NCBI GenBank assembly: GCA_041661345.1
Contig: JBAZUO010000004.1
Location: 13,688 to 77,687, forward strand
Direction of reading: 5' to 3'
Length of the DNA: 64,000 bases
Source of the DNA: Candidatus Omnitrophota bacterium
Lineage (GTDB): Bacteria > Omnitrophota > Gorgyraeia > 2-01-FULL-45-10
Shown here one piece after another: positions 3,005 to 62,243 of the stretch. The position numbers were made by a program, and so were the translations under genes. The notes below the pieces were generated by a model. It worked only from the letters and a program-made list of their open reading frames with translations. It searched no databases and was not told the origin of the DNA. Each line of letters begins with the position of its first letter. Positions within the stretch are counted from its first letter, which is position 1.

Positions 3005-5418
3005 TTATCAATACCATTTTTCAATTCTATTGCATTCGTTCCGGGCGAAATTCTTACATTCGCAAAACCAGGTAATTGAATATCTATCGGCGGCTCTTTC
3101 GTAAACCAAATTCCTTGCCATTCGACAAGGACATTTTCTTCCTGAGGTTTTATGGAAATTTGAATAATGCCAAATCTTGTCGGCGCGGGCCCAAACGCGA
3201 TCGTTTGTTTTTTACTTAACCAGATTCGCGGTATCCCCGAACATAATATTAATCGGCCGTTTTCTTCACGTACAAAACAATTTCTTATCATCAAAACCCA
3301 TTCCGCCGCGGCCCACACATGCTGCCCGTCCCCCATGCATCCGCCGCCTGTGCGTGGATGCACCGACTCAGGCCATTGTCCCGTTGGTGAAGCCAGTTTA
3401 GCCACCGCTGTCATTAAACCAAAATATCTTGGATCGCCTGCGCGCAAAAGCACCTGGGCTAAATGCAGTGTAAGGTAAGGATTGATCCCAGAATGGGTCA
3501 TATCATGAAAGAATCCGCCATGGATCAAACAATTTTTCATTAAATAATCAACTGTATCTAAAATCCTTGGATCATTCTGTTTAAAAATACGAAGCGGATA
3601 GCCGGCAACCAAAGAGCCAATCGCCCCCGCATCCAAGCGGCGATAAGGAGATGCTGGTATCGCAGGCCTTTTCAAACGAACTTCGACTTTTTTCAAGCTT
3701 TTGTCAATACTCTCCAGTAAAGAATTTGATTCAACTTCAAAATAAAGAGCACGATCATTATCCTTGTAAGCAGTGCATAAAAAAGCTGCTGCTTTTAATC
3801 CCGCTACAGCCCAGAAATCATCCCAATAATAAAAATCATTCGGCCCCAGATGTTCGGCGCTGAATCCCGACGGTAATAAGCCTGCATGAGGAAATCGTAA
3901 ATCGCCGGATAAACGCTTTTTACAGATCCACTTACCGGCTTTACTGATCGATTCTTTCCATTCTTCCGGTGGTACATTTCCCGTCATCTCACAATACTGA
4001 CGCATGATCCACAGGGCCTCACCGTTGGAATCCCACTCCCCTTCTTGAGAGAGGAAATAACCATCAGCTGTCTGACGGGAGCGGAAACAATCTAAGGCTC
4101 GTCGAACGCGCTCGGTTAACCCGGCAGATAACATGGCAGATAATATAAAAGCGGCATCGCGAAACCAAAATCGCCGGTAAATATAAGGACCTGGATAAAC
4201 TTCCTTCGGAGAATGCAAAATCATTGTGTGGATAGCGGCTTCGTAAAGAAATTGAATTTGTTCATCTGGAATTTGCAATATACAGATGCCTTGAAGACTT
4301 TTCTTCCACTCCACCTGAGCAGCCTCTTGAGGGTACCTATAAGATCCTCTTTCAATTTTATTTTTCGTTAAAGGTACCAAAACGGTTATTTCTTGTAATT
4401 CTCCCGTCTCCAATATAAAAACGGCTGCGGAGCTGGCCATACCGACTTTGCATGAAATTTCTTTTTCAAATTCATTCGATGATAAACGGCTATAAACATC
4501 ACCTCGATAATAGTTCGAAAATACGTATTGATCCGGACACTTATCAAAATATATAAAATTTTCCTGATTTACCTTCCAGCCCAACGAATCTTCGAGTAGG
4601 GTAATGCTATTTATAAAGCTCACGCCTTCGGGGTTATAAGGCCTGAGAGAAACGACTAGCCGCGCATTAGTGGAACCAGACCCTGTGATTTTAACCTGGC
4701 AAATAGGTTCTTTGGCTGGACCAATAACTTGCGCTTTCAATTGAAGCTTTAATTGCCCAAGACTTGATTCTGTGATCACGCAAAGATTATCATCGAAAGT
4801 CATCTTTTGCGATACATTTGGCATGCGCGACGGAATTAATGGCTCTCCCTCTTTTGGAATAATCCAGGCGTCAATGGACCACCCATCATAATAGGGCGTA
4901 ACAAGGCCGCGTGGATCTATAATAGGAAATTCGGTGCTGTCAGGAACGCCTAAAGCTGTCCAATTTCTATGGGTGAGATTAATTTGAGTCAGTGAAAAAG
5001 ACCGCGGTATAAACGCCGGATCTTCAGGATCATATTGACATTCTACCCAATAAGGCCAGATCCAATCAAGGTTATGTTGAATGGCTAAGCTATTTATTAA
5101 ACCACGAGCGTGCATGACAGCCCCTGAACGCAACAGCTCCGTCGGAGCTGCCACCTCCGAGGGTTGCGCAAAACTCTGTAATCGAGAAATCAATTTAACA
5201 GGATCTAAAAACCCCTGCCTGCGCGCAGCATCGCTCAATAAAAATTTCCACGGTAACCATTTCCACCATATAAAATAAGCCCGCTCTTTCAACAAGATTC
5301 TAAAAACCCACCACTTAAAGCAGATAAAGGCAAATAAGGCTGTCAACGTTGTAGCGATAATCAACGCTGCAAAAATAGCCCCGGGCCACAAGTTAAGGAT
5401 ACTTTGATTTATTAACAT
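3001..5418 (-). CDS. Membrane-anchored six-hairpin glycosidase-like protein of 805 aa (GH15/GH63/GDE_C-like (alpha/alpha)6 barrel).
   Basis: N-terminal TM helix (AIFAALIIATTLTALFAFICF). The segment YRRFWFRDAAFILSAMLSAGL...EGEWDSNGEALWIMRQY is typical of glucoamylase-like six-hairpin glycosidases. The family assignment is by motif only. Confidence 0.5.
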   Translation of the reverse strand: MLINQSILNLWPGAIFAALIIATTLTALFAFICFKWWVFRILLKERAYFIWWKWLPWKFLLSDAARRQGFLDPVKLISRLQSFAQPSEVAAPTELLRSGAVMHARGLINSLAIQHNLDWIWPYWVECQYDPEDPAFIPRSFSLTQINLTHRNWTALGVPDSTEFPIIDPRGLVTPYYDGWSIDAWIIPKEGEPLIPSRMPNVSQKMTFDDNLCVITESSLGQLKLQLKAQVIGPAKEPICQVKITGSGSTNARLVVSLRPYNPEGVSFINSITLLEDSLGWKVNQENFIYFDKCPDQYVFSNYYRGDVYSRLSSNEFEKEISCKVGMASSAAVFILETGELQEITVLVPLTKNKIERGSYRYPQEAAQVEWKKSLQGICILQIPDEQIQFLYEAAIHTMILHSPKEVYPGPYIYRRFWFRDAAFILSAMLSAGLTERVRRALDCFRSRQTADGYFLSQEGEWDSNGEALWIMRQYCEMTGNVPPEEWKESISKAGKWICKKRLSGDLRFPHAGLLPSGFSAEHLGPNDFYYWDDFWAVAGLKAAAFLCTAYKDNDRALYFEVESNSLLESIDKSLKKVEVRLKRPAIPASPYRRLDAGAIGSLVAGYPLRIFKQNDPRILDTVDYLMKNCLIHGGFFHDMTHSGINPYLTLHLAQVLLRAGDPRYFGLMTAVAKLASPTGQWPESVHPRTGGGCMGDGQHVWAAAEWVLMIRNCFVREENGRLILCSGIPRIWLSKKQTIAFGPAPTRFGIIQISIKPQEENVLVEWQGIWFTKEPPIDIQLPGFANVRISPGTNAIELKNGIDK

Positions 5419-8243: not shown

Positions 8244-8338
8244 AAAAACGTTTGGCCGCGAGACCTGCTATAGTCTACATGTTGGCAAGGCGAAGGGCAA
8301 AAGCAGACTACGCTTTTGCCCGAAGCCCGAACGTTGTT
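8244..8338 (-). repeat. tRNA-trailer structured element, copy A. It abuts the CCA of tRNA-Glu.
   Basis: aaacgtttggccgc...gcccgaagcccgaacgtt. Its termini are inverted-complementary, with a G.U-compatible change relative to the other copies. The copy is mosaic: its 5' half matches copy D and its 3' half matches copy E. Confidence 0.6.
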
Positions 8339-8512: not shown

Positions 8513-8629
8513 AACGATTTGGCCGCAAGGCCGCTGTTGCCAGCGTGTCGGCGGGCGAAGGGCGAAAAACAATACAACATTTTTCGGCCCGAAGCCCAAA
8601 TCGCTAAATGGTGCGCGGGACAGGACTTG
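8511..8629 (-). repeat. tRNA-trailer structured element copy B (8511-8608), followed by a 21-nt duplicate of the 3' end of tRNA-Leu (8609-8629).
   Basis: Element: aaaacgatttggccgc...ggcccgaagcccaaatcgctaaa. The segment tggtgcgcgggacaggacttg is identical to 8746-8766, which is the real tRNA-Leu 3' end. Confidence 0.6.
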
Positions 8630-9525: not shown

Positions 9526-9654
9526 TTAAGAAAAACCCTTTCATAAAAGGTTTTTCTTAAACAAATTTGGGCGCTAGCCCCACTGGCTATTGCTTTGTCG
9601 GTGGGCCGAAGTCAAAAACCAGACAACAGTTTTTGGCGGAGGCCAAATTTGCAT
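9526..9654 (-). repeat. Conserved hairpin (9526-9560, ttaagaaaaaccctttcataaaaggtttttcttaa) plus tRNA-trailer element copy C (9559-9654), abutting the tRNA-Gln CCA.
   Basis: aaacaaatttgggcgc...ggcggaggccaaatttgcattgg. The terminal stem caaatttgg/ccaaatttg covaries relative to copies B and D (cgatttgg/ccaaatcg). Confidence 0.6.
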
Positions 9655-18336: not shown

Positions 18337-19545
18337 TTATCCTATCTCCTCTATCCTGCTTCTGAATTTTCCCTTGCCCAGTTTCGTCTCGACTATATCG
18401 TCTTTCTTCAATTCGGACGCATCTTTAATTATAAAAGCGCCTGGCAATTTCGTCGTAATGCTGTACCCTCTACCCAATATTGCAAGCGGGCTTAAGGAAT
18501 CAAGTTTCCCAGCGAGAAACTTGAAATTTTCCTGCCGCATCTTCACCAGGTGATCGACCCTTATCGCGAGGCCCTTACGTAAATCATCTATCTTCTGTTC
18601 ATGCTGTATAATTATATTAAGCGGCTGCCTCAGTATATAGCTTTCTTTTAGCGTCGTGAATCTTTCGGTCAGGATATCAAGTTTAGTTGTAAGCGCATTC
18701 CTAAGCCTCGTCGCAGCCGTATTTATAAGATTAGCGAGGTCTTCTTTTCTTGGAATAACGAGCTCCGCCGCTGCGGACGGAGTCGGCGCCCTGAAATCCG
18801 CCACAAAGTCCGATATCGTGTAATCGATCTCGTGCCCGACCGCGCTTATCACCGGAATTTCCGAATCATATATAGCTCTCGCCACAACCTCTTCATTGAA
18901 CGGCCACAGGTCCTCGAGGCTTCCTCCGCCGCGAGTCACTATCATCACGTCGACATTATTCAATTCGTTGAACTGCCTTATCGCGGCGGCAATCTCGTCC
19001 TTTGCGTCGGCGCCCTGCACCTTCACGGGATTTATTATTATTTCGTTATGTGAAAATCTGCGCCTGACGATATTAAGAATGTCGCGGATGGCCGCGCCCG
19101 TCGGGCTGGTGACGATACCGATCCTGGTCGGCAGGTGCGGGATCGCGACTTTATGGCGTTCATCAAACAGGCCTTCCTTTGCCAATCTCTCTTTCAACTG
19201 CTGAAATTGCAGCTGAAGAGCTCCGATGCCTTTAGGCTCTATCTCCTCGACGATCAGCTGATAGTCGCCGCGTGCCTCGTAAACGCTCGCTCTTCCGAAG
19301 CAGATCACCTTCATGCCGTCTTTGGGCTTAAATTTCAGTTTCGCGTTCGAGCGCGCGAACATGGCGCATTTCAGCGTCGAGCCGGCGTCTTTTAACGTGA
19401 AATACATATGCCCGGACGAATGCAGGACGAAGTTCGATATCTCGCCCTCTACCCAGATCGATGGGAACGAGTCCTCGAGAATGACGCGGATATACTTCGT
19501 CAATTCCGAGACGGTATATATATGCTTCTCTTTCTGCTCGTTCAT
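18337..19545 (-). CDS. xseA: Exodeoxyribonuclease VII large subunit.
   Basis: YTVSELTKYIRVILEDSFPSIWVEGEISNF... The start is probably MNEQKEKH at 19545; the track ORF extends to 19623. Confidence 0.9.
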   Translation of the reverse strand: MNEQKEKHIYTVSELTKYIRVILEDSFPSIWVEGEISNFVLHSSGHMYFTLKDAGSTLKCAMFARSNAKLKFKPKDGMKVICFGRASVYEARGDYQLIVEEIEPKGIGALQLQFQQLKERLAKEGLFDERHKVAIPHLPTRIGIVTSPTGAAIRDILNIVRRRFSHNEIIINPVKVQGADAKDEIAAAIRQFNELNNVDVMIVTRGGGSLEDLWPFNEEVVARAIYDSEIPVISAVGHEIDYTISDFVADFRAPTPSAAAELVIPRKEDLANLINTAATRLRNALTTKLDILTERFTTLKESYILRQPLNIIIQHEQKIDDLRKGLAIRVDHLVKMRQENFKFLAGKLDSLSPLAILGRGYSITTKLPGAFIIKDASELKKDDIVETKLGKGKFRSRIEEIG

Positions 19546-19825
19546 GCTACTCCCAAATTTTACGGGTCCTGCCGCTCCCTCGGCTTTTCTTTCTAGGGCT
19601 CGCACGGGGTTCACAATCAACATGTAAAAGCTCGAGTGGTGTCTGTATGCCCGCCAGGATTGCCTGCAACAGGACTATTAAAACTAGGGCGCGGGCTTAC
19701 TATTATGCAATCCTAAACGGCGGGCACCCCCATCCCATGCTCGCCCATAATCGAAAAGCCTTCAGTCGCGTCACCCGTAAAATTTTCTGCCTGCCTTTCA
19801 GTAAAATTTTTCGACTTCTCCAAAA

Positions 19826-20000
19826 ATGTGATGTGGCGATGTGGTGAGCAGGGCCTGAAAATTTTTTGGAGATTGGTCCGCCGACAAAGTCGGCGGGACA
19901 AAAAATTTTCCCCGGAGCGAGGACTGCCGCTGGAGCAGTCCGAGCGTCCCTGCGAACCACGTTGACACAGCACATTACACTGCTATATCGAAAAATTTTT
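19826..20000. repeat. Copy 1 of a ~175-nt structured element: three AnTn tracts, two covarying hairpins and a tandem GATGTGG repeat. It is the inverted homologue of 56320-56495 at the origin.
   Basis: Aligns to the reverse complement of 56320-56495 at about 75% identity. tgtgatgtggcgatgtggtgagc is 23/23 identical. The hairpins ggactgccgctggagcagtcc and ggtttgctccagcggcaaacc differ by compensatory substitutions. Confidence 0.6.
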
Positions 20001-20781
20001 ACCCCAACTTTTTCTGGATACGCTTGATGGAATCTGCTTTTCCTGTCTTATCGTCTATATCTATGATAACGCCGTGGAGCTGAATATCTCCCTCGGCCAT
20101 TTCGAACTTGGTGGGCATCTGGGTGAGAAATCTGTTCAATATCTGCTCTTTCTTCCTGCCGATAACGCCTTCGAACGGCCCGGTCATACCGGCGTCCGAT
20201 ATGAAGGCGGTCCCCTGCGGCAGGATCTTCTCGTCAGCAGTCTGGACATGCGTATGCGTACCGGCTATCGCGCTCACAGATCCATCGAGATACCAACCGA
20301 GCGCGATCTTTTCGCTTGTAGCCTCGGCATGCATATCGACGATTATTATTTGAGCCTTGCCTTTAAGCCTTTCGACTTCCCTTTTGGCAGTTTTGAACGG
20401 GCACTCGACAGCCTGCATAAAGATACGGCCAATGAGGTTTATAACTCCGACGGAGACGCCGGATTCAGAGCGCACAACTGTCGAGCCGGACCCCGGCGCG
20501 TCGTTCGGATAGTTTGCCGGCCTTAAAAGCCTTGCGTCCGAAGCGAGTTTATCGTATATCTCTTTTCTCTTCCATATGTGGTCGCCGGAGGTAAGGACAT
20601 CGATACCGTAGTTAAACAGCTCGTCGGCAAGGGCCGGCGTAACGCCGCTTCCGGCGGCGACATTCTCGCAATTTGCGACGACGAATTCCACGCCTTCCGA
20701 TTTTTTTATCTTCGGGAGCAGTTCCTTTATCGCGCGCCTTCCCGGCTCGCCGACTATATCACCGATGAATAATATCTTCAT
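19999..20781 (-). CDS. ymdB: YmdB-like metallophosphoesterase (2',3'-cyclic-nucleotide phosphodiesterase, TIGR00282).
   Basis: [11 protein letters not shown]...NCENVAAG...GDHIW...MHAEATSEK. It lies downstream of rny, as in Bacillus. Confidence 0.85.
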
Positions 20782-40889: not shown

Positions 40890-41119
40890 AAAAAATCCCC
40901 GCGAGTGCCGTGTCAAGCTGAATTATCTTGATCCTGTTATTTACAGGTGGGTGCCCTCTTATAGATACCGAGGTATCCGTAAAGTTAGGCTCCCTAGTTT
41001 AGTGCTAATGGCTCAAGATTCTCCATTCGAATCACGCGCACCGCAGGGAATTTATCCTTCTAAAAAAAGTATATCACAAATTCCATGGAATGCAATCCTG
41101 CTTCGCAGGACAGGCTTTC

Positions 41120-47009: not shown

Positions 47010-47135
47010 TTGAAGGGAAACCTTGGTTTCCCTTCAAAACGATTTGGTCGCAAGACCTGCTGTTGTTTGACAGCCGACAGGGCGGAGGGCAAAAAACAAC
47101 ACAACATTTTTTGGCCCGAAGCCCAAATCGTTTAG
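47010..47135 (-). repeat. Conserved hairpin (47010-47037, ttgaagggaaaccttggtttcccttcaa) plus tRNA-trailer element copy D (47036-47135), abutting the tRNA-Leu(UAA) CCA.
   Basis: aaaacgatttggtcgcaagacctgctg...ttttttggcccgaagcccaaatcgtttag. The 11-bp terminal complementarity is perfect. Confidence 0.6.
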
Positions 47136-47221
47136 TGGTGGGCAAGGAGGGAGTCGAACCCTCATGGCCTTGCGGCCAGTGACTTTTAAGGCCACCGTGT
47201 ATGCCTTTCCACCACTTGCCC
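47136..47221 (-). tRNA. tRNA-Leu, anticodon UAA, with a long variable arm. Continuous; no intron.
   Basis: Reverse complement gives GGGCAAGTGGTGGAAAGGCATACACGGTGGCCTTAAAAGTCACTGGCCGCAAGGCCATGAGGGTTCGACTCCCTCCTTGCCCACCA. The anticodon stem is GTGGC/GTCAC with loop CTTAAAA. Confidence 0.85.
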
Positions 47222-47980: not shown

Positions 47981-48102
47981 TTAAAGAGAAACTACGTTTC
48001 TCTTTAAACAAATTTGGGCGCGAGCCCCGTCGTTGCTTTACGCATTGGCGGGCCGAAGCCAAAAAGCAGACTACACTTTTTGGCGGAGGCCAAATTTGTG
48101 TA
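47981..48102 (-). repeat. Conserved hairpin (47981-48007, ttaaagagaaactacgtttctctttaa) plus tRNA-trailer element copy E (48007-48102), abutting the tRNA-Val CCA.
   Basis: aaacaaatttgggcgcgagcccc...ggcgggccgaagcc...ttttggcggaggccaaatttgtgta. In minus-strand sense it contains a GGCUUCGGCC tetraloop hairpin. Confidence 0.6.
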
Positions 48103-50666: not shown

Positions 50667-51541
50667 TCTAAATTCTTCGCTTGCTCGCGTATCTTCTCTA
50701 TCTCGCCTTTTATCTCGATGACGCTTTTCGATATCTTGAAATCACTCGCCTTGGAGCCGATGGTATTGATCTCTCTGTGAAGTTCCTGGGCGATAAAATC
50801 TATCTTTTTCCCCACCTCGCCGCCCTCGGCCATGGTTTTGTTAAAGTTCACCAGGTGGTTTGCAAGCCTCGTTATCTCTTCGGAAATGTCGCAGTTCTTT
50901 GCGTATATTGCGACTTCCATCTCAAGCCTGCCCAGATCGATATTCCTGCCGCCTGTCATCTCTTTCACGCGCTCCTCGAATTTTTTTTTGTACTCTTCTA
51001 TATTGAGATGGGCGCGGGATCTTATGATGGATAACATGCTTTCTATCTTCTTGGTTCTTTTGGTGAGGTCCAGAGCAAGGGCTTTCCCTTCTTTCCCCCT
51101 GTCAATAGCCAATTTATCCACAGCCTTATCGAGGACTTTTTTTATCTTCGGCCAGATCTTCGCGATCCGCTCGTCATGTGCCTTGTAGTTAAGGACCCCC
51201 GGGAGCGTTAAAACATCGCGCGTCGCTATCTCATCCCGGATGCTCAAGCAATTTTTAAGGGCGCACAGGTCACGGTAGTAATTTTTGGCAACGGCTTTAT
51301 TTATGATTATCTTCTCTTCCTTCAGAAGCGCTCCGTCGAGGACCAGGTTCAAATTCACCTTTCCCCTTCTTATCTTTTTCTGCAGGATCTCCTTGATCCT
51401 GTCCTCGAAGTAAGTGATGCCGTTGGGGAGTTTAAGCGTTCCGTCGAAAAATTTGTGGTTGACTGTTTTTATCTCGACGGTGATCTTCCCGCCTGAAAAA
51501 CTCTCCGAAGCCTTGCCGAAGCCCGTCATTGAACGTATCAA
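50663..51541 (-). CDS. yicC: YicC/YloC-family protein.
   Basis: MIRSMTGFGKA. Confidence 0.85.
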   Translation of the reverse strand: MIRSMTGFGKASESFSGGKITVEIKTVNHKFFDGTLKLPNGITYFEDRIKEILQKKIRRGKVNLNLVLDGALLKEEKIIINKAVAKNYYRDLCALKNCLSIRDEIATRDVLTLPGVLNYKAHDERIAKIWPKIKKVLDKAVDKLAIDRGKEGKALALDLTKRTKKIESMLSIIRSRAHLNIEEYKKKFEERVKEMTGGRNIDLGRLEMEVAIYAKNCDISEEITRLANHLVNFNKTMAEGGEVGKKIDFIAQELHREINTIGSKASDFKISKSVIEIKGEIEKIREQAKNLE

Positions 51542-56252: not shown

Positions 56253-56280
56253 ATTATAACACATATTTATTTTGAGTCAA
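56253..56280 (-). promoter_or_regulatory. Near-consensus sigma70 promoter for rpmH: TTGACT-N16-TGtTATAAT (extended -10).
   Basis: Reverse complement of 56250-56290 reads ttgactcaaaataaatatgtgttataat. Confidence 0.6.
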
Positions 56281-56319
56281 CAAGTTAAATTTTCCGGGAT
56301 CCCGCCTATACCCCAAGCA

Positions 56320-56495
56320 AATTTTTCGCTCTTACTGAAATGTGCTGTGTCGAGTGGTTCGCTTAGGACGTTCGGTTTGCTCCAGCGGCAAACCTCACTC
56401 CGGGGAAAATTTTTTATGCCGCCGCTAGGCTTCAACAGCGGACCAATCCATAAAAAATTTTCAGGCCTAAGCTCACCACATCGCCACATCACATT
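56320..56495. repeat. Copy 2 of the ~175-nt structured element (see 19826-20000), lying between the divergent rpmH and dnaA promoters at the origin.
   Basis: Reverse-complement alignment to copy 1; covarying hairpins; AnTn tracts (gaaaattttttat, cataaaaaatttt, gcaaattttt). Confidence 0.6.
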
Positions 56496-56530
56496 TCTCG
56501 CTGTGCCGAAAAATTTACCTTATTTTTTGC

Positions 56531-56636
56531 TTGCAAATGCCTTTCGGCTCCGCTATAATATGCGCTCATGGCTGTGCACAACATGTGCATAACTTATGGA
56601 TTTGTGTTGAAAATGTGCTTATTTTTCTGTGGATAA
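56531..56636 (+). promoter_or_regulatory. dnaA promoter TTGCAA-N17-TATAAT (56531-56559), followed by three DnaA boxes: tgtgcacaa at 56573, tgtgcataa at 56584, and a perfect TGTGGATAA at 56628.
   Basis: Direct inspection. Genes switch strand at this point, consistent with oriC and an autoregulated dnaA. Confidence 0.65.
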
Positions 56637-62140: not shown

Positions 62141-62150
62141 CAGCACGGTT

Positions 62151-62222
62151 AGTTTACAGTAAACAGGTTACAGTTAACAGCAAAAGCTTTTACTGTAAAC
62201 TGTGAGCTGTAAACTGTAAACT
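62151..62222. repeat. Heptad-repeat long imperfect palindrome: (ACAGNNN)x4, then caaaagctttta, then (CTGTNNN)x4, between gyrB and gyrA.
   Basis: gtttACAGtaaACAGgttACAGttaACAGcaaaagcttttaCTGTaaaCTGTgagCTGTaaaCTGTaaac. Confidence 0.6.
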
Positions 62223-62243
62223 AAAATAAGGAGTTAGCGAAGG

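Follow-up and report, generated by a model that had tools for sequence, protein, structure and literature searches.

A probable new family of structured, insertion-polymorphic intergenic repeats in Candidatus Omnitrophota

Introduction

This report concerns a non-coding palindromic element that occurs twice in a 64,000-nt stretch of DNA from a Candidatus Omnitrophota bacterium (GenBank assembly GCA_041661345.1, contig JBAZUO010000004.1, positions 13,688 to 77,687; the whole stretch is referred to below as the window), once between ymdB and xseA and once between rpmH and dnaA. The closest described systems are dispersed bacterial repeats and recombination sites. The 127-bp ERIC/IRU sequences of the Enterobacteriaceae are, like the present element, dispersed non-coding imperfect palindromes located in intergenic or intercistronic transcribed regions; in both, modular internal indels are evident (here as type A, type B and a minimal form at locus L030), and some copies occupy orthologous positions across species while others are polymorphic. 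However, the element is without similarity to E. coli sequences, folds as a three-way junction with conserved loops as opposed to a simple hairpin, has a strong orientation bias, abuts stop codons and belongs to a different phylum. The REP/BIME sequences (REPIN, RAYT/HUH) are also short palindromic intergenic repeats at gene 3′ ends, often in tandem with short linkers, and strand-specific recognition of a hairpin is plausible for the element as well. REP/BIME units are 20-40 nt with a GTAG-type head, whereas the units considered here span 165-260 nt with AnTn termini, and a RAYT-like gene was not seen near any copy.

The Correia repeats of Neisseria (CREE/NEMIS) and other miniature inverted-repeat transposable elements (MITEs), including RUP and BOX, resemble the element in being non-autonomous, 100-250 bp in length, bounded by terminal inverted repeats, insertion-polymorphic and co-transcribed as long hairpins that can provide expression signals to the downstream gene. 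Correia repeats have a clear TA target-site duplication and terminal repeats like those of insertion sequences (IS); for the element, no target-site duplication could be discerned and no parent IS is known, and deep covariation accompanied by arm replacement is not a described property of MITEs. Integron attC sites, including those of VCR type, are imperfect palindromes that immediately follow the stop codon of an upstream ORF and fold on the strand antisense to that ORF; structure and unpaired bases are kept more than sequence, and the sites are repeated between co-oriented genes. All of this is shared by the element. The latter nonetheless lacks the R″ and R′ sites, is larger and branched, has no adjacent integrase and has housekeeping genes as neighbours, with only the non-coding unit being polymorphic. 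Finally, the mycobacterial MIRU likewise occupy intercistronic operon spacers in fixed orientation, with ends that overlap flanking stop and start signals, but are 40-100-bp direct repeats with small ORFs, whereas the element is a structured palindrome. On the evidence presented here, the element probably represents a previously undescribed family of MITE/ERIC/REP-like structured intergenic repeats, non-coding and insertion-polymorphic.

Two copies of the element in the window

All coordinates are positions in the whole window, and 5′ and 3′ refer to the G-rich strand of the element, on which it folds (the G strand). An earlier note, prepared from the sequence alone, described two inverted copies with roughly 75% identity over their full length; alignment of 19826-20000 with the reverse complement of 56320-56495 gave 79% (146/184 columns), and BLAST within the window paired 19804-19998 with 56516-56319 (E 1.7e-41). 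The note had suggested that the copies could mediate inversion around the origin; the longest exact run that they have in common is only 26 nt. The 23-nt core reported at that time, TGTGATGTGGCGATGTGGTGAGC, is indeed exact in both copies, and the AnTn tracts are present in both. The core has no third site in the window even if 3 mismatches are allowed, and was seen in 0/100 shuffles. The natural unit is slightly larger than that first described, extending over 19803-20000 and 56319-56516 once the paired termini AAAATTTTTCG...CGAAAAATTTT are included. Just two copies in the window are found by R1, a covariance model that was also run over all of the loci collected in this work, for which other genomes were covered in stretches of 8 kb. 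Additional copies suggested by terminus motifs at 51445 and 52578/52706 were rejected as chance matches, the motifs being inside long open reading frames (ORFs). The parts of the element are as follows, with helices named as in the next section.

19803..20000, + (G-rich folding strand): copy 1, full family-1 (type A) element; R1 164 bits at 19817-19987
19803-19813, +: copy 1, 5′ terminus AAAATTTTTCG
19814-19824, +: copy 1, variable segment, 5′ side
19825-19845, +: copy 1, 5′ arm of P1 with the GATGTGG core
19846-19847, +: copy 1, GA loop, 5′ side
19848-19853 with 19948-19953, +: copy 1, P2
19857-19910, +: copy 1, P3, with AnTn stem, GATTGGT loop and GC hairpin
19917-19945, +: copy 1, P4 (GC-GA-GGACTGC[CGCTGGA]GCAGTCC-GA-GC)
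19954-19955, +: copy 1, GA loop, 3′ side
19956-19976, +: copy 1, 3′ arm of P1
19977-19988, +: copy 1, variable segment, 3′ side
19989-20000, +: copy 1, 3′ terminus CGAAAAATTTTT
56319..56516, - (G-rich folding strand): copy 2, full family-1 (type A) element; R1 154 bits at 56328-56503

A single structure is formed by the complete unit on either strand: an AnTn stem is outermost, the GATGTGG core pairs with CACAGCACATT in a long helix, and two hairpins lie inside. The minimum free energy (MFE) of the TGTGATGTGG strand is -88.3 kcal/mol for copy 1 and -89.7 kcal/mol for copy 2 (z -8.1 and -7.3), and 0/200 shuffles were as stable; the corresponding values for the complement are -79.8 and -74.4 kcal/mol. 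Both internal hairpins had been put forward as differing between the copies by compensatory substitution. In the first, GGACTGC/GCAGTCC versus GGTTTGC/GCAAACC is a true double compensatory change; the second is kept as a hairpin in both copies, but with differences in sequence and in loop length. The GC skew of copy 1 is +0.06 on the + strand and that of its flanks is opposite in sign (-0.11 to -0.16), hence the G-richness of this copy is not explained by local mutational bias. An ORF of 45 aa on the G strand of copy 1 was rejected as coding, since other subfamilies are without it and the constraint is on base pairing.

A fold maintained by compensatory changes

The structure of the family was defined on an alignment of 18 members (A3). 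On the G strand it comprises a long closing helix (P1), a 5′-GA/3′-AG internal loop, helices P2 and P2a, and a three-way junction with two further branches. The first, P3, consists of the AnTn stem, a conserved GCUUGGU loop and a variable GC hairpin, while the second, P4, has another GA/AG loop and an invariant CGCUGGA loop. Both of the 2x2 internal loops are GA/GA in 17/18 members, and AAAATTTT tracts are kept at the level of sequence in P3 and in the termini.

Standard pairs are formed in 90.6% of cells, compared with 74.0% in shuffles, and double-sided changes are evident at 39/57 pairs, compared with 27.4. Similarly, the covariation score of 0.452 compares with 0.176 in shuffles and with 0.07-0.10 when pairing partners are slid; for both the pairing and covariation measures, 0/500 shuffles reached the observed value. 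P1 is represented by six unrelated arm sequences, the helix having been replaced wholesale between lineages with the three-way-junction core being kept. The fold is maintained by compensatory changes, and the folded single strand, whether RNA or DNA, must therefore matter to the element. The alignment of the two window copies holds and covariation across the family is strong, which strongly backs the original proposal that pairing kept despite divergent sequence implies selection on a folded nucleic acid, as opposed to a recent duplication.

A strand asymmetry apparent in the first set of loci, collected with an exact core, was set aside as ascertainment bias, since that search fixes the 5′ arm, and was re-derived from a set anchored on an internal module. 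With elements trimmed to their exact ends, the G strand is more stable in 18/18 members with RNA parameters (mean -7.8 kcal/mol) and in 17/18 with DNA parameters (mean -4.2 kcal/mol), and the preference holds in all six arm lineages.

A dispersed family

The element had been described as a two-copy, origin-associated sequence. That description does not survive, as copies are dispersed, many per genome, beside unrelated housekeeping genes. An exact scan with 19 nt of the core, covering one genome per species, identified 32 loci, 28 of them in nine Candidatus Omnitrophota metagenome-assembled genomes (MAGs), including at least 12 in fen_1320, six in RA.bin12 and four in fen_1322; the element is not present at the four exact-core matches in other phyla. 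A second scan, of metagenomes, employed a pattern derived from the internal P4 module in order to avoid anchoring on one arm. This revealed more copies of the GATGTGG type, together with an independent assembly (L046) of the rpmH-dnaA locus of the window, and also elements with the same core and entirely different yet complementary closing helices, several of which are without AnTn termini. The search for copies and the covariance model that the earlier note had called for thus yielded 45 distinct R1 members across all of the Omnitrophota and metagenome loci.

The unit, of ~165-200 nt, is found in Candidatus Omnitrophota and in unidentified relatives in metagenomes, and contains no gene, conserved ORF or promoter of its own. 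Among exact-core copies that share termini and arms, the internal modules vary, with type A present in the window, type B being the commonest and none present in L030; in addition, two short segments differ from copy to copy. Many copies in MAGs are broken by NN scaffold gaps, which is the mark of a repeat that collapses assemblies. The genes adjacent to copies include those for IscS-like, TatD/radical-SAM, HisRS, HU, DnaE, transketolase, MogA, ZnuA, RecO, DapB, CoaX and SpoIID proteins, and none of the proteins that flank the copies in the window was found at any other copy. Genes of 458 and 365 aa at L040 were considered as dnaA and dnaN and rejected, being a TatD/radical-SAM fusion and an unrelated ORF.

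Copies in different MAGs were observed after homologous flanking genes in two instances (L003 6914-7040 and L006 7238-7413; L009 and L015), and some insertions are therefore old and retained. The L003 copy has an internal deletion between two AAATTTTAC repeats. RNA genes can also be neighbours, since the 5′ end of a core-family element at L041 is ~25 nt away from a tRNA gene (853-923).

No Rfam 15 family was matched by the element, whether in the window at gathering thresholds, in both copies at E up to 10, or in ten diverse members at E up to 1. Neither was any match to the element found in viral contigs, phages or plasmids, or by distant-mode blastn against 5,426 complete E. coli genomes, and nothing relevant to it was found in the literature searched.

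The insertion between ymdB and xseA

Copy 1 had been placed in a 375-nt intergenic region with no obvious promoter partner. The ymdB-xseA spacer that holds it is ~453 nt in length in the window, and copy 1 is not alone there: a second and different palindromic element, designated element X, fills the rest. From the ymdB side, the spacer consists of copy 1, a 17-nt linker, element X and then GGGAGTAGC before the ATG.

19999..20001, -: ymdB stop codon TAA, overlapping the last two bases of the terminal T-run of copy 1
19786..19802, no strand assigned: 17-nt linker from element X to copy 1, purine-rich on the gene-sense strand
19555..19785, -: element X, palindromic, in tandem with copy 1; termini AAATTTTACGGGT...ACCCGTAAAATTT, a 13-nt inverted repeat
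19546..19554, -: GGGAGTAGC, Shine-Dalgarno-like tail that links element X to the xseA start (ATG 19545-19543), from comparison of the window with L050/L051

Element X is unrelated to family 1 and has an MFE of -95.5 kcal/mol on the gene-sense (-) strand compared with -80.4 kcal/mol on the other. Its homologue in L013 again adjoins a type-A family-1 copy. A 49-nt mini version of element X was observed in L044.

The same junction is empty in close relatives. In L050/L051, where YmdB is 97% and XseA 96% identical to the window proteins, only 12 nt separate the ymdB stop codon from the xseA ATG, and in L053 (YmdB 86%) and L058 (YmdB 79%) the two genes overlap. A different element, ~240 nt in length, occupies this point in L052 (YmdB 88%) and has the AnTn termini in common. 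These relatives also indicate that the longest ORF for xseA (18337-19623, -) over-extends into the insert, the true start being the ATG at 19545 (MNEQKEKH...). Judged from the orthologous junctions, copy 1 and element X together are an insertion that is absent from this site in close relatives. The GGGAGTAGC tail is missing from the empty site of the closest relative; it would provide xseA with a new Shine-Dalgarno sequence, and appears to derive from the tandem insert, after X, as opposed to the family-1 unit.

The rpmH-dnaA site and the origin

Copy 2 occupies the interval from which the rpmH and dnaA promoters diverge, and 14 nt separate it from the downstream -35 hexamer of dnaA. The cumulative GC skew of the window has its minimum near 56 kb, in support of the earlier placement of the origin near rpmH-dnaA. 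The recognisable features of the region lie outside the element.

56253..56280, -: rpmH promoter, TTGACT-16-TATAAT with TG; outside the element, kept in relatives
56287..56296, +: lone terminus-like motif AAATTTTCCG, 22 nt past the end of copy 2 and just upstream of the rpmH -35; compare the linker pattern of L042
56531..56559, +: dnaA promoter, TTGCAA-17-TATAAT; outside the element, kept in relatives with and without it
56573..56636, no strand assigned: DnaA-box cluster TGTGCACAA, TGTGCATAA, TGTGGATAA, between the dnaA promoter and ATG; outside the element, kept in relatives

No DnaA box (TTATNCACA, with up to 1 mismatch) was found inside copy 1 or copy 2. No element occupies the rpmH-dnaA site in L063 and L064, and the site is wholly without one in relatives whose DnaA is 79-80% identical. 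In L060 and L062, unrelated bodies bounded by the same termini sit at this point, immediately preceding the dnaA -35. At L059 the contig breaks inside an AnTn-terminated element at the dnaA-upstream site. Copy 2 itself was recovered with identical flanks in the independent assembly L046. These empty sites, the unrelated bodies at the same spot and the lack of DnaA boxes count against the suggestion that the element serves as an origin or accessory replication element; copy 2 as a part of oriC, or the element as an origin-specific sequence, is not supported. The location of copy 2 is best explained if the region upstream of the dnaA promoter is a permissive insertion point that has been used repeatedly. 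The AAATTTTCCG motif may be what is left of the end of an element that once lay nearby.

Placement relative to genes

Orientation was scored from the G strand of R1 members with a scorable gene on the 3′ side of the element (n=39). The element is convergent with that gene in 32/39 copies; both neighbours are antisense to the G strand in 25 cases and both run in its direction in five. The R1 match ends within 40 nt of the stop codon in 23/32 convergent copies, with a median distance of ~11 nt, which amounts to direct abutment because the terminus adds to the R1 match. Many copies are, in addition, only 12-40 nt from the next start codon. The two copies at L040 (A and B) have the unit in common but not the flanks. 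A TATAAT and a T-run beside L034/L040 copy A were considered as parts of the element and rejected, since copy B of the same contig is without both.

Unrelated elements with the same termini, and the search for a mobiliser

The exact termini AAATTTTTCG and CGAAAAATTT occur 41 and 27 times, respectively, in the 415 kb of loci, compared with ~0.4 expected. They form the ends of several bodies that fold strongly and are unrelated to one another, frequently arranged in tandem with family-1 copies. The linkers between tandem elements are purine-rich, 16-19 nt in length and contain GGAG. At least three further families of 230-290 nt have AAATTTTTCG...CGAAAAATTT termini and different bodies, at the following loci.

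L004 4162-4395; L018 6503-6739; L054 ~3790-4020; L052 2876-3116: further-family elements
L062 ~2022-2306; L012 3007-3271; L015 946-1185: further-family elements, continued

Since the same termini bound unrelated bodies, with similar linkers, the data suggest that a common machinery recognises the ends. In family 1, terminus AAAATTTTTCG pairs with terminus CGAAAAATTTT, and variation at the two ends follows an inverted-repeat pattern. The empty-site sequence AAGATTTT resembles the terminus AAAATTTT, and with a palindromic terminus a duplication and an inverted repeat are indistinguishable.

No gene-sized unit with these termini that encodes a transposase was found in the 415 kb of loci. The sole gene-sized pair of termini, considered as an autonomous parent, was rejected as two inverted family-1 elements around an ORF without a Pfam match. 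This pair (L001 2564-3857) flanks an ORF of 258 aa in an arrangement like that of a composite unit. In MAG JBAZKH01, two of three exact-core copies were observed to abut the stop codons of genes for XerD-like (L001 1626-2513) and XerC-like (L031 6597-7469) tyrosine recombinases, which are 40% identical to each other and both end in HPRA. As candidate mobilisers these were rejected: no other genome repeats the link, the proteins resemble housekeeping paralogues, and the adjacency may be coincidence. With respect to integrons, XerC- and XerD-like proteins were the only recombinases near copies, with no adjacent IntI and no cassette ORFs, and neither of the attC motifs R″ (RYYYAAC) and R′ (GTTRRRY) was found in either window copy in the gene-sense orientation.

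Other features of the window

Beyond the element, the Rfam scan of the window revealed just tRNAs and a 6S RNA (RF00013, 80 bits, 40892-41052, -), which is unrelated to the element. Two small families of hairpin repeats (e.g. GGCGGGCCGAAGCCAAAAAGCAGACTACACTTTTTGGCGGAGGCC) lie beside tRNA genes on the - strand, at 8284-8335, 9600-9651 and 48047-48098, and at 8553-8616 and 47080-47143, and may be shared terminators or processing signals. A near-perfect palindrome of 76 nt at 62149-62224, with 38-nt arms that are 84% complementary and no spacer, is composed of repeated GTAAACAG/CTGTAAAC-like motifs.

Discussion

The properties of the element are in large part those of MITEs: it is non-coding, with units of 165-260 nt and terminal inverted repeats, present in many dispersed copies, and shows presence/absence polymorphism at both window sites, while a related autonomous IS with a transposase was absent from the 415 kb of loci scanned. 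If it is a family of MITE/ERIC/REP-like repeats, as seems probable, the element would spread in the form of folded ssDNA or RNA, which an enzyme acting in trans would recognise, and recognition in this form would account for selection on structure and on certain unpaired bases. Short junctions rich in A/T would be the sites of insertion, immediately beyond stop codons in some cases and ahead of promoters in others. Between co-directional genes, the element would be read through as the complementary hairpin in mRNA, where it could feasibly act in the manner of ERIC, REP or Correia hairpins, as a 3′-end, attenuator or stability element.

Several observations weigh against such an interpretation. 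There is no transposase or other partner enzyme near any copy in the loci collected, and, with the palindromic AAAATTTT terminus, no target-site duplication is resolved, the ends at L016 varying as inverted and not direct repeats. Coverage of other genomes as 8-kb windows renders per-genome copy counts incomplete. The favoured folding strand is antisense to the host genes, which is not predicted by a function exerted purely as a co-transcribed mRNA hairpin, and the core is conserved across lineages with unrelated arms to a depth not usual in MITEs, which would fit a genuine functional RNA too. Moreover, four relatives have some element at the same point upstream of dnaA, and a local benefit there is possible. 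The depth of covariation, the conservation of unpaired bases on one strand and the antisense relation of that strand to the host genes are unusual for MITE, REP or ERIC sequences, and for this reason readings as a functional RNA or as an attC-like folded ssDNA are kept alive. Tentatively, the core, with its two GA/AG loops and the GCUUGGU and CGCUGGA loops, could be a new functional nucleic-acid domain with a dedicated partner enzyme, either as a structured RNA (protein-binding, ribozyme-like or a retroelement template) carried on a mobile unit, or as an attC-like folded-ssDNA substrate that targets stop-codon junctions of housekeeping genes.

An unlikely explanation is that the copies are a multi-copy family of independently transcribed small RNAs of ~170 nt, with the G-rich strand as their source and in convergent orientation to the upstream gene, with P1 as a bidirectional terminator and with the conserved loops (GCUUGGU, CGCUGGA and GA/AG) binding a protein or RNA. 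Strong covariation, conserved loop sequences and the better folding of the G strand in all lineages would be expected of such RNAs, and a separate transcription unit could lie antisense to both neighbours; at L034/L040 copy A there is even a TATAAT 6 nt upstream of P1 and a T7 run after it. However, these promoter- and terminator-like flanks are outside the homologous unit and absent from copy B, and no sigma-70-like promoter precedes the G strand of either window copy, in a genome where the rpmH and dnaA promoters are canonical. The many copies that are 12-40 nt from a start codon and a few nt from a stop codon have no room for a promoter, and insertion polymorphism of the copies also counts against the proposal. 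A folded-ssDNA recombination site, comparable to integron attC or to a REP/RAYT substrate, is distinctly improbable. Here, a tyrosine recombinase or HUH enzyme would read the G-strand fold, with its extrahelical and mismatched bases, and insert or excise the element at stop-codon junctions. The logic of attC is matched by an imperfect palindrome with structure conserved above sequence and with unpaired bases that define the strand, by a folded strand that is antisense to the upstream ORF and abuts its stop codon, and by retention of the G-strand preference with DNA energy parameters; one MAG, furthermore, has two copies abutting XerC- and XerD-like genes. Against this, the R″/R′ core sites are absent, the unit of 165-200 nt with a three-way junction is bigger than attC (57-141 bp) or REP, core housekeeping genes form the flanks, and the evidence of empty sites is that movement is confined to the non-coding unit and does not involve gene cassettes. 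The Xer adjacency is not repeated elsewhere and involves what look like ordinary XerC/XerD paralogues, and, where the genes are on the leading strand, the G strand serves as the leading-strand template, a strand not normally exposed as ssDNA.

A role as an origin or accessory replication element, or as a platform for nucleoid proteins, with phased AnTn tracts bending the DNA and the 19.9-kb copy acting like datA or DARS, is very hard to sustain. It would account for copy 2 lying at the GC-skew minimum between rpmH and dnaA, for conservation of the AAAATTTT tracts in P3 and the termini, and for the AnTn-terminated elements of the four relatives upstream of dnaA. Yet the DnaA boxes are outside the element and kept regardless of it, relatives with 79-80% identical DnaA are empty at the site or, in other cases, have unrelated bodies there, dozens of copies follow ordinary genes far from any dnaA, and copy 1 is absent from the closest relative; in addition, covariation indicates selection on intrastrand pairing and not on duplex binding sites. 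The chance that copy 1 is an assembly artefact, being a chimeric join or misplaced repeat in a metagenome-assembled contig, is slight in the extreme. Members of the family do break or gap many MAG assemblies, with NN inside copies and the L059 contig ending in an element, but both junctions of the insert are coherent (the ymdB stop codon overlaps the terminus, and a Shine-Dalgarno sequence precedes the xseA ATG), the same junction holds another element in L052, and copy 2 is confirmed in a second assembly.

For annotation of the origin, a false lead is removed, in that the conserved parts of this Omnitrophota origin region are the promoters and DnaA boxes and not the 175-nt element. An abundant family of structured Omnitrophota repeats is documented, which fragments MAG assemblies through NN gaps and contig breaks, and model R1 can be used to mask or annotate the elements in Omnitrophota genomes. 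The family remodels intercistronic junctions, as where overlapping ymdB and xseA genes have become separated by a 450-nt structured spacer with a new putative ribosome-binding site, and repeatedly occupies the region upstream of the dnaA promoter. Known MITE, REP or ERIC families do not normally combine very strong covariation with conservation of unpaired bases on a single strand, an antisense orientation and precise abutment of stop codons, and this set of features points to a specific recognition machinery; if the core does prove to be a new nucleic-acid domain with its own partner enzyme, a new class of mobile element would be established for a phylum about which little is known.

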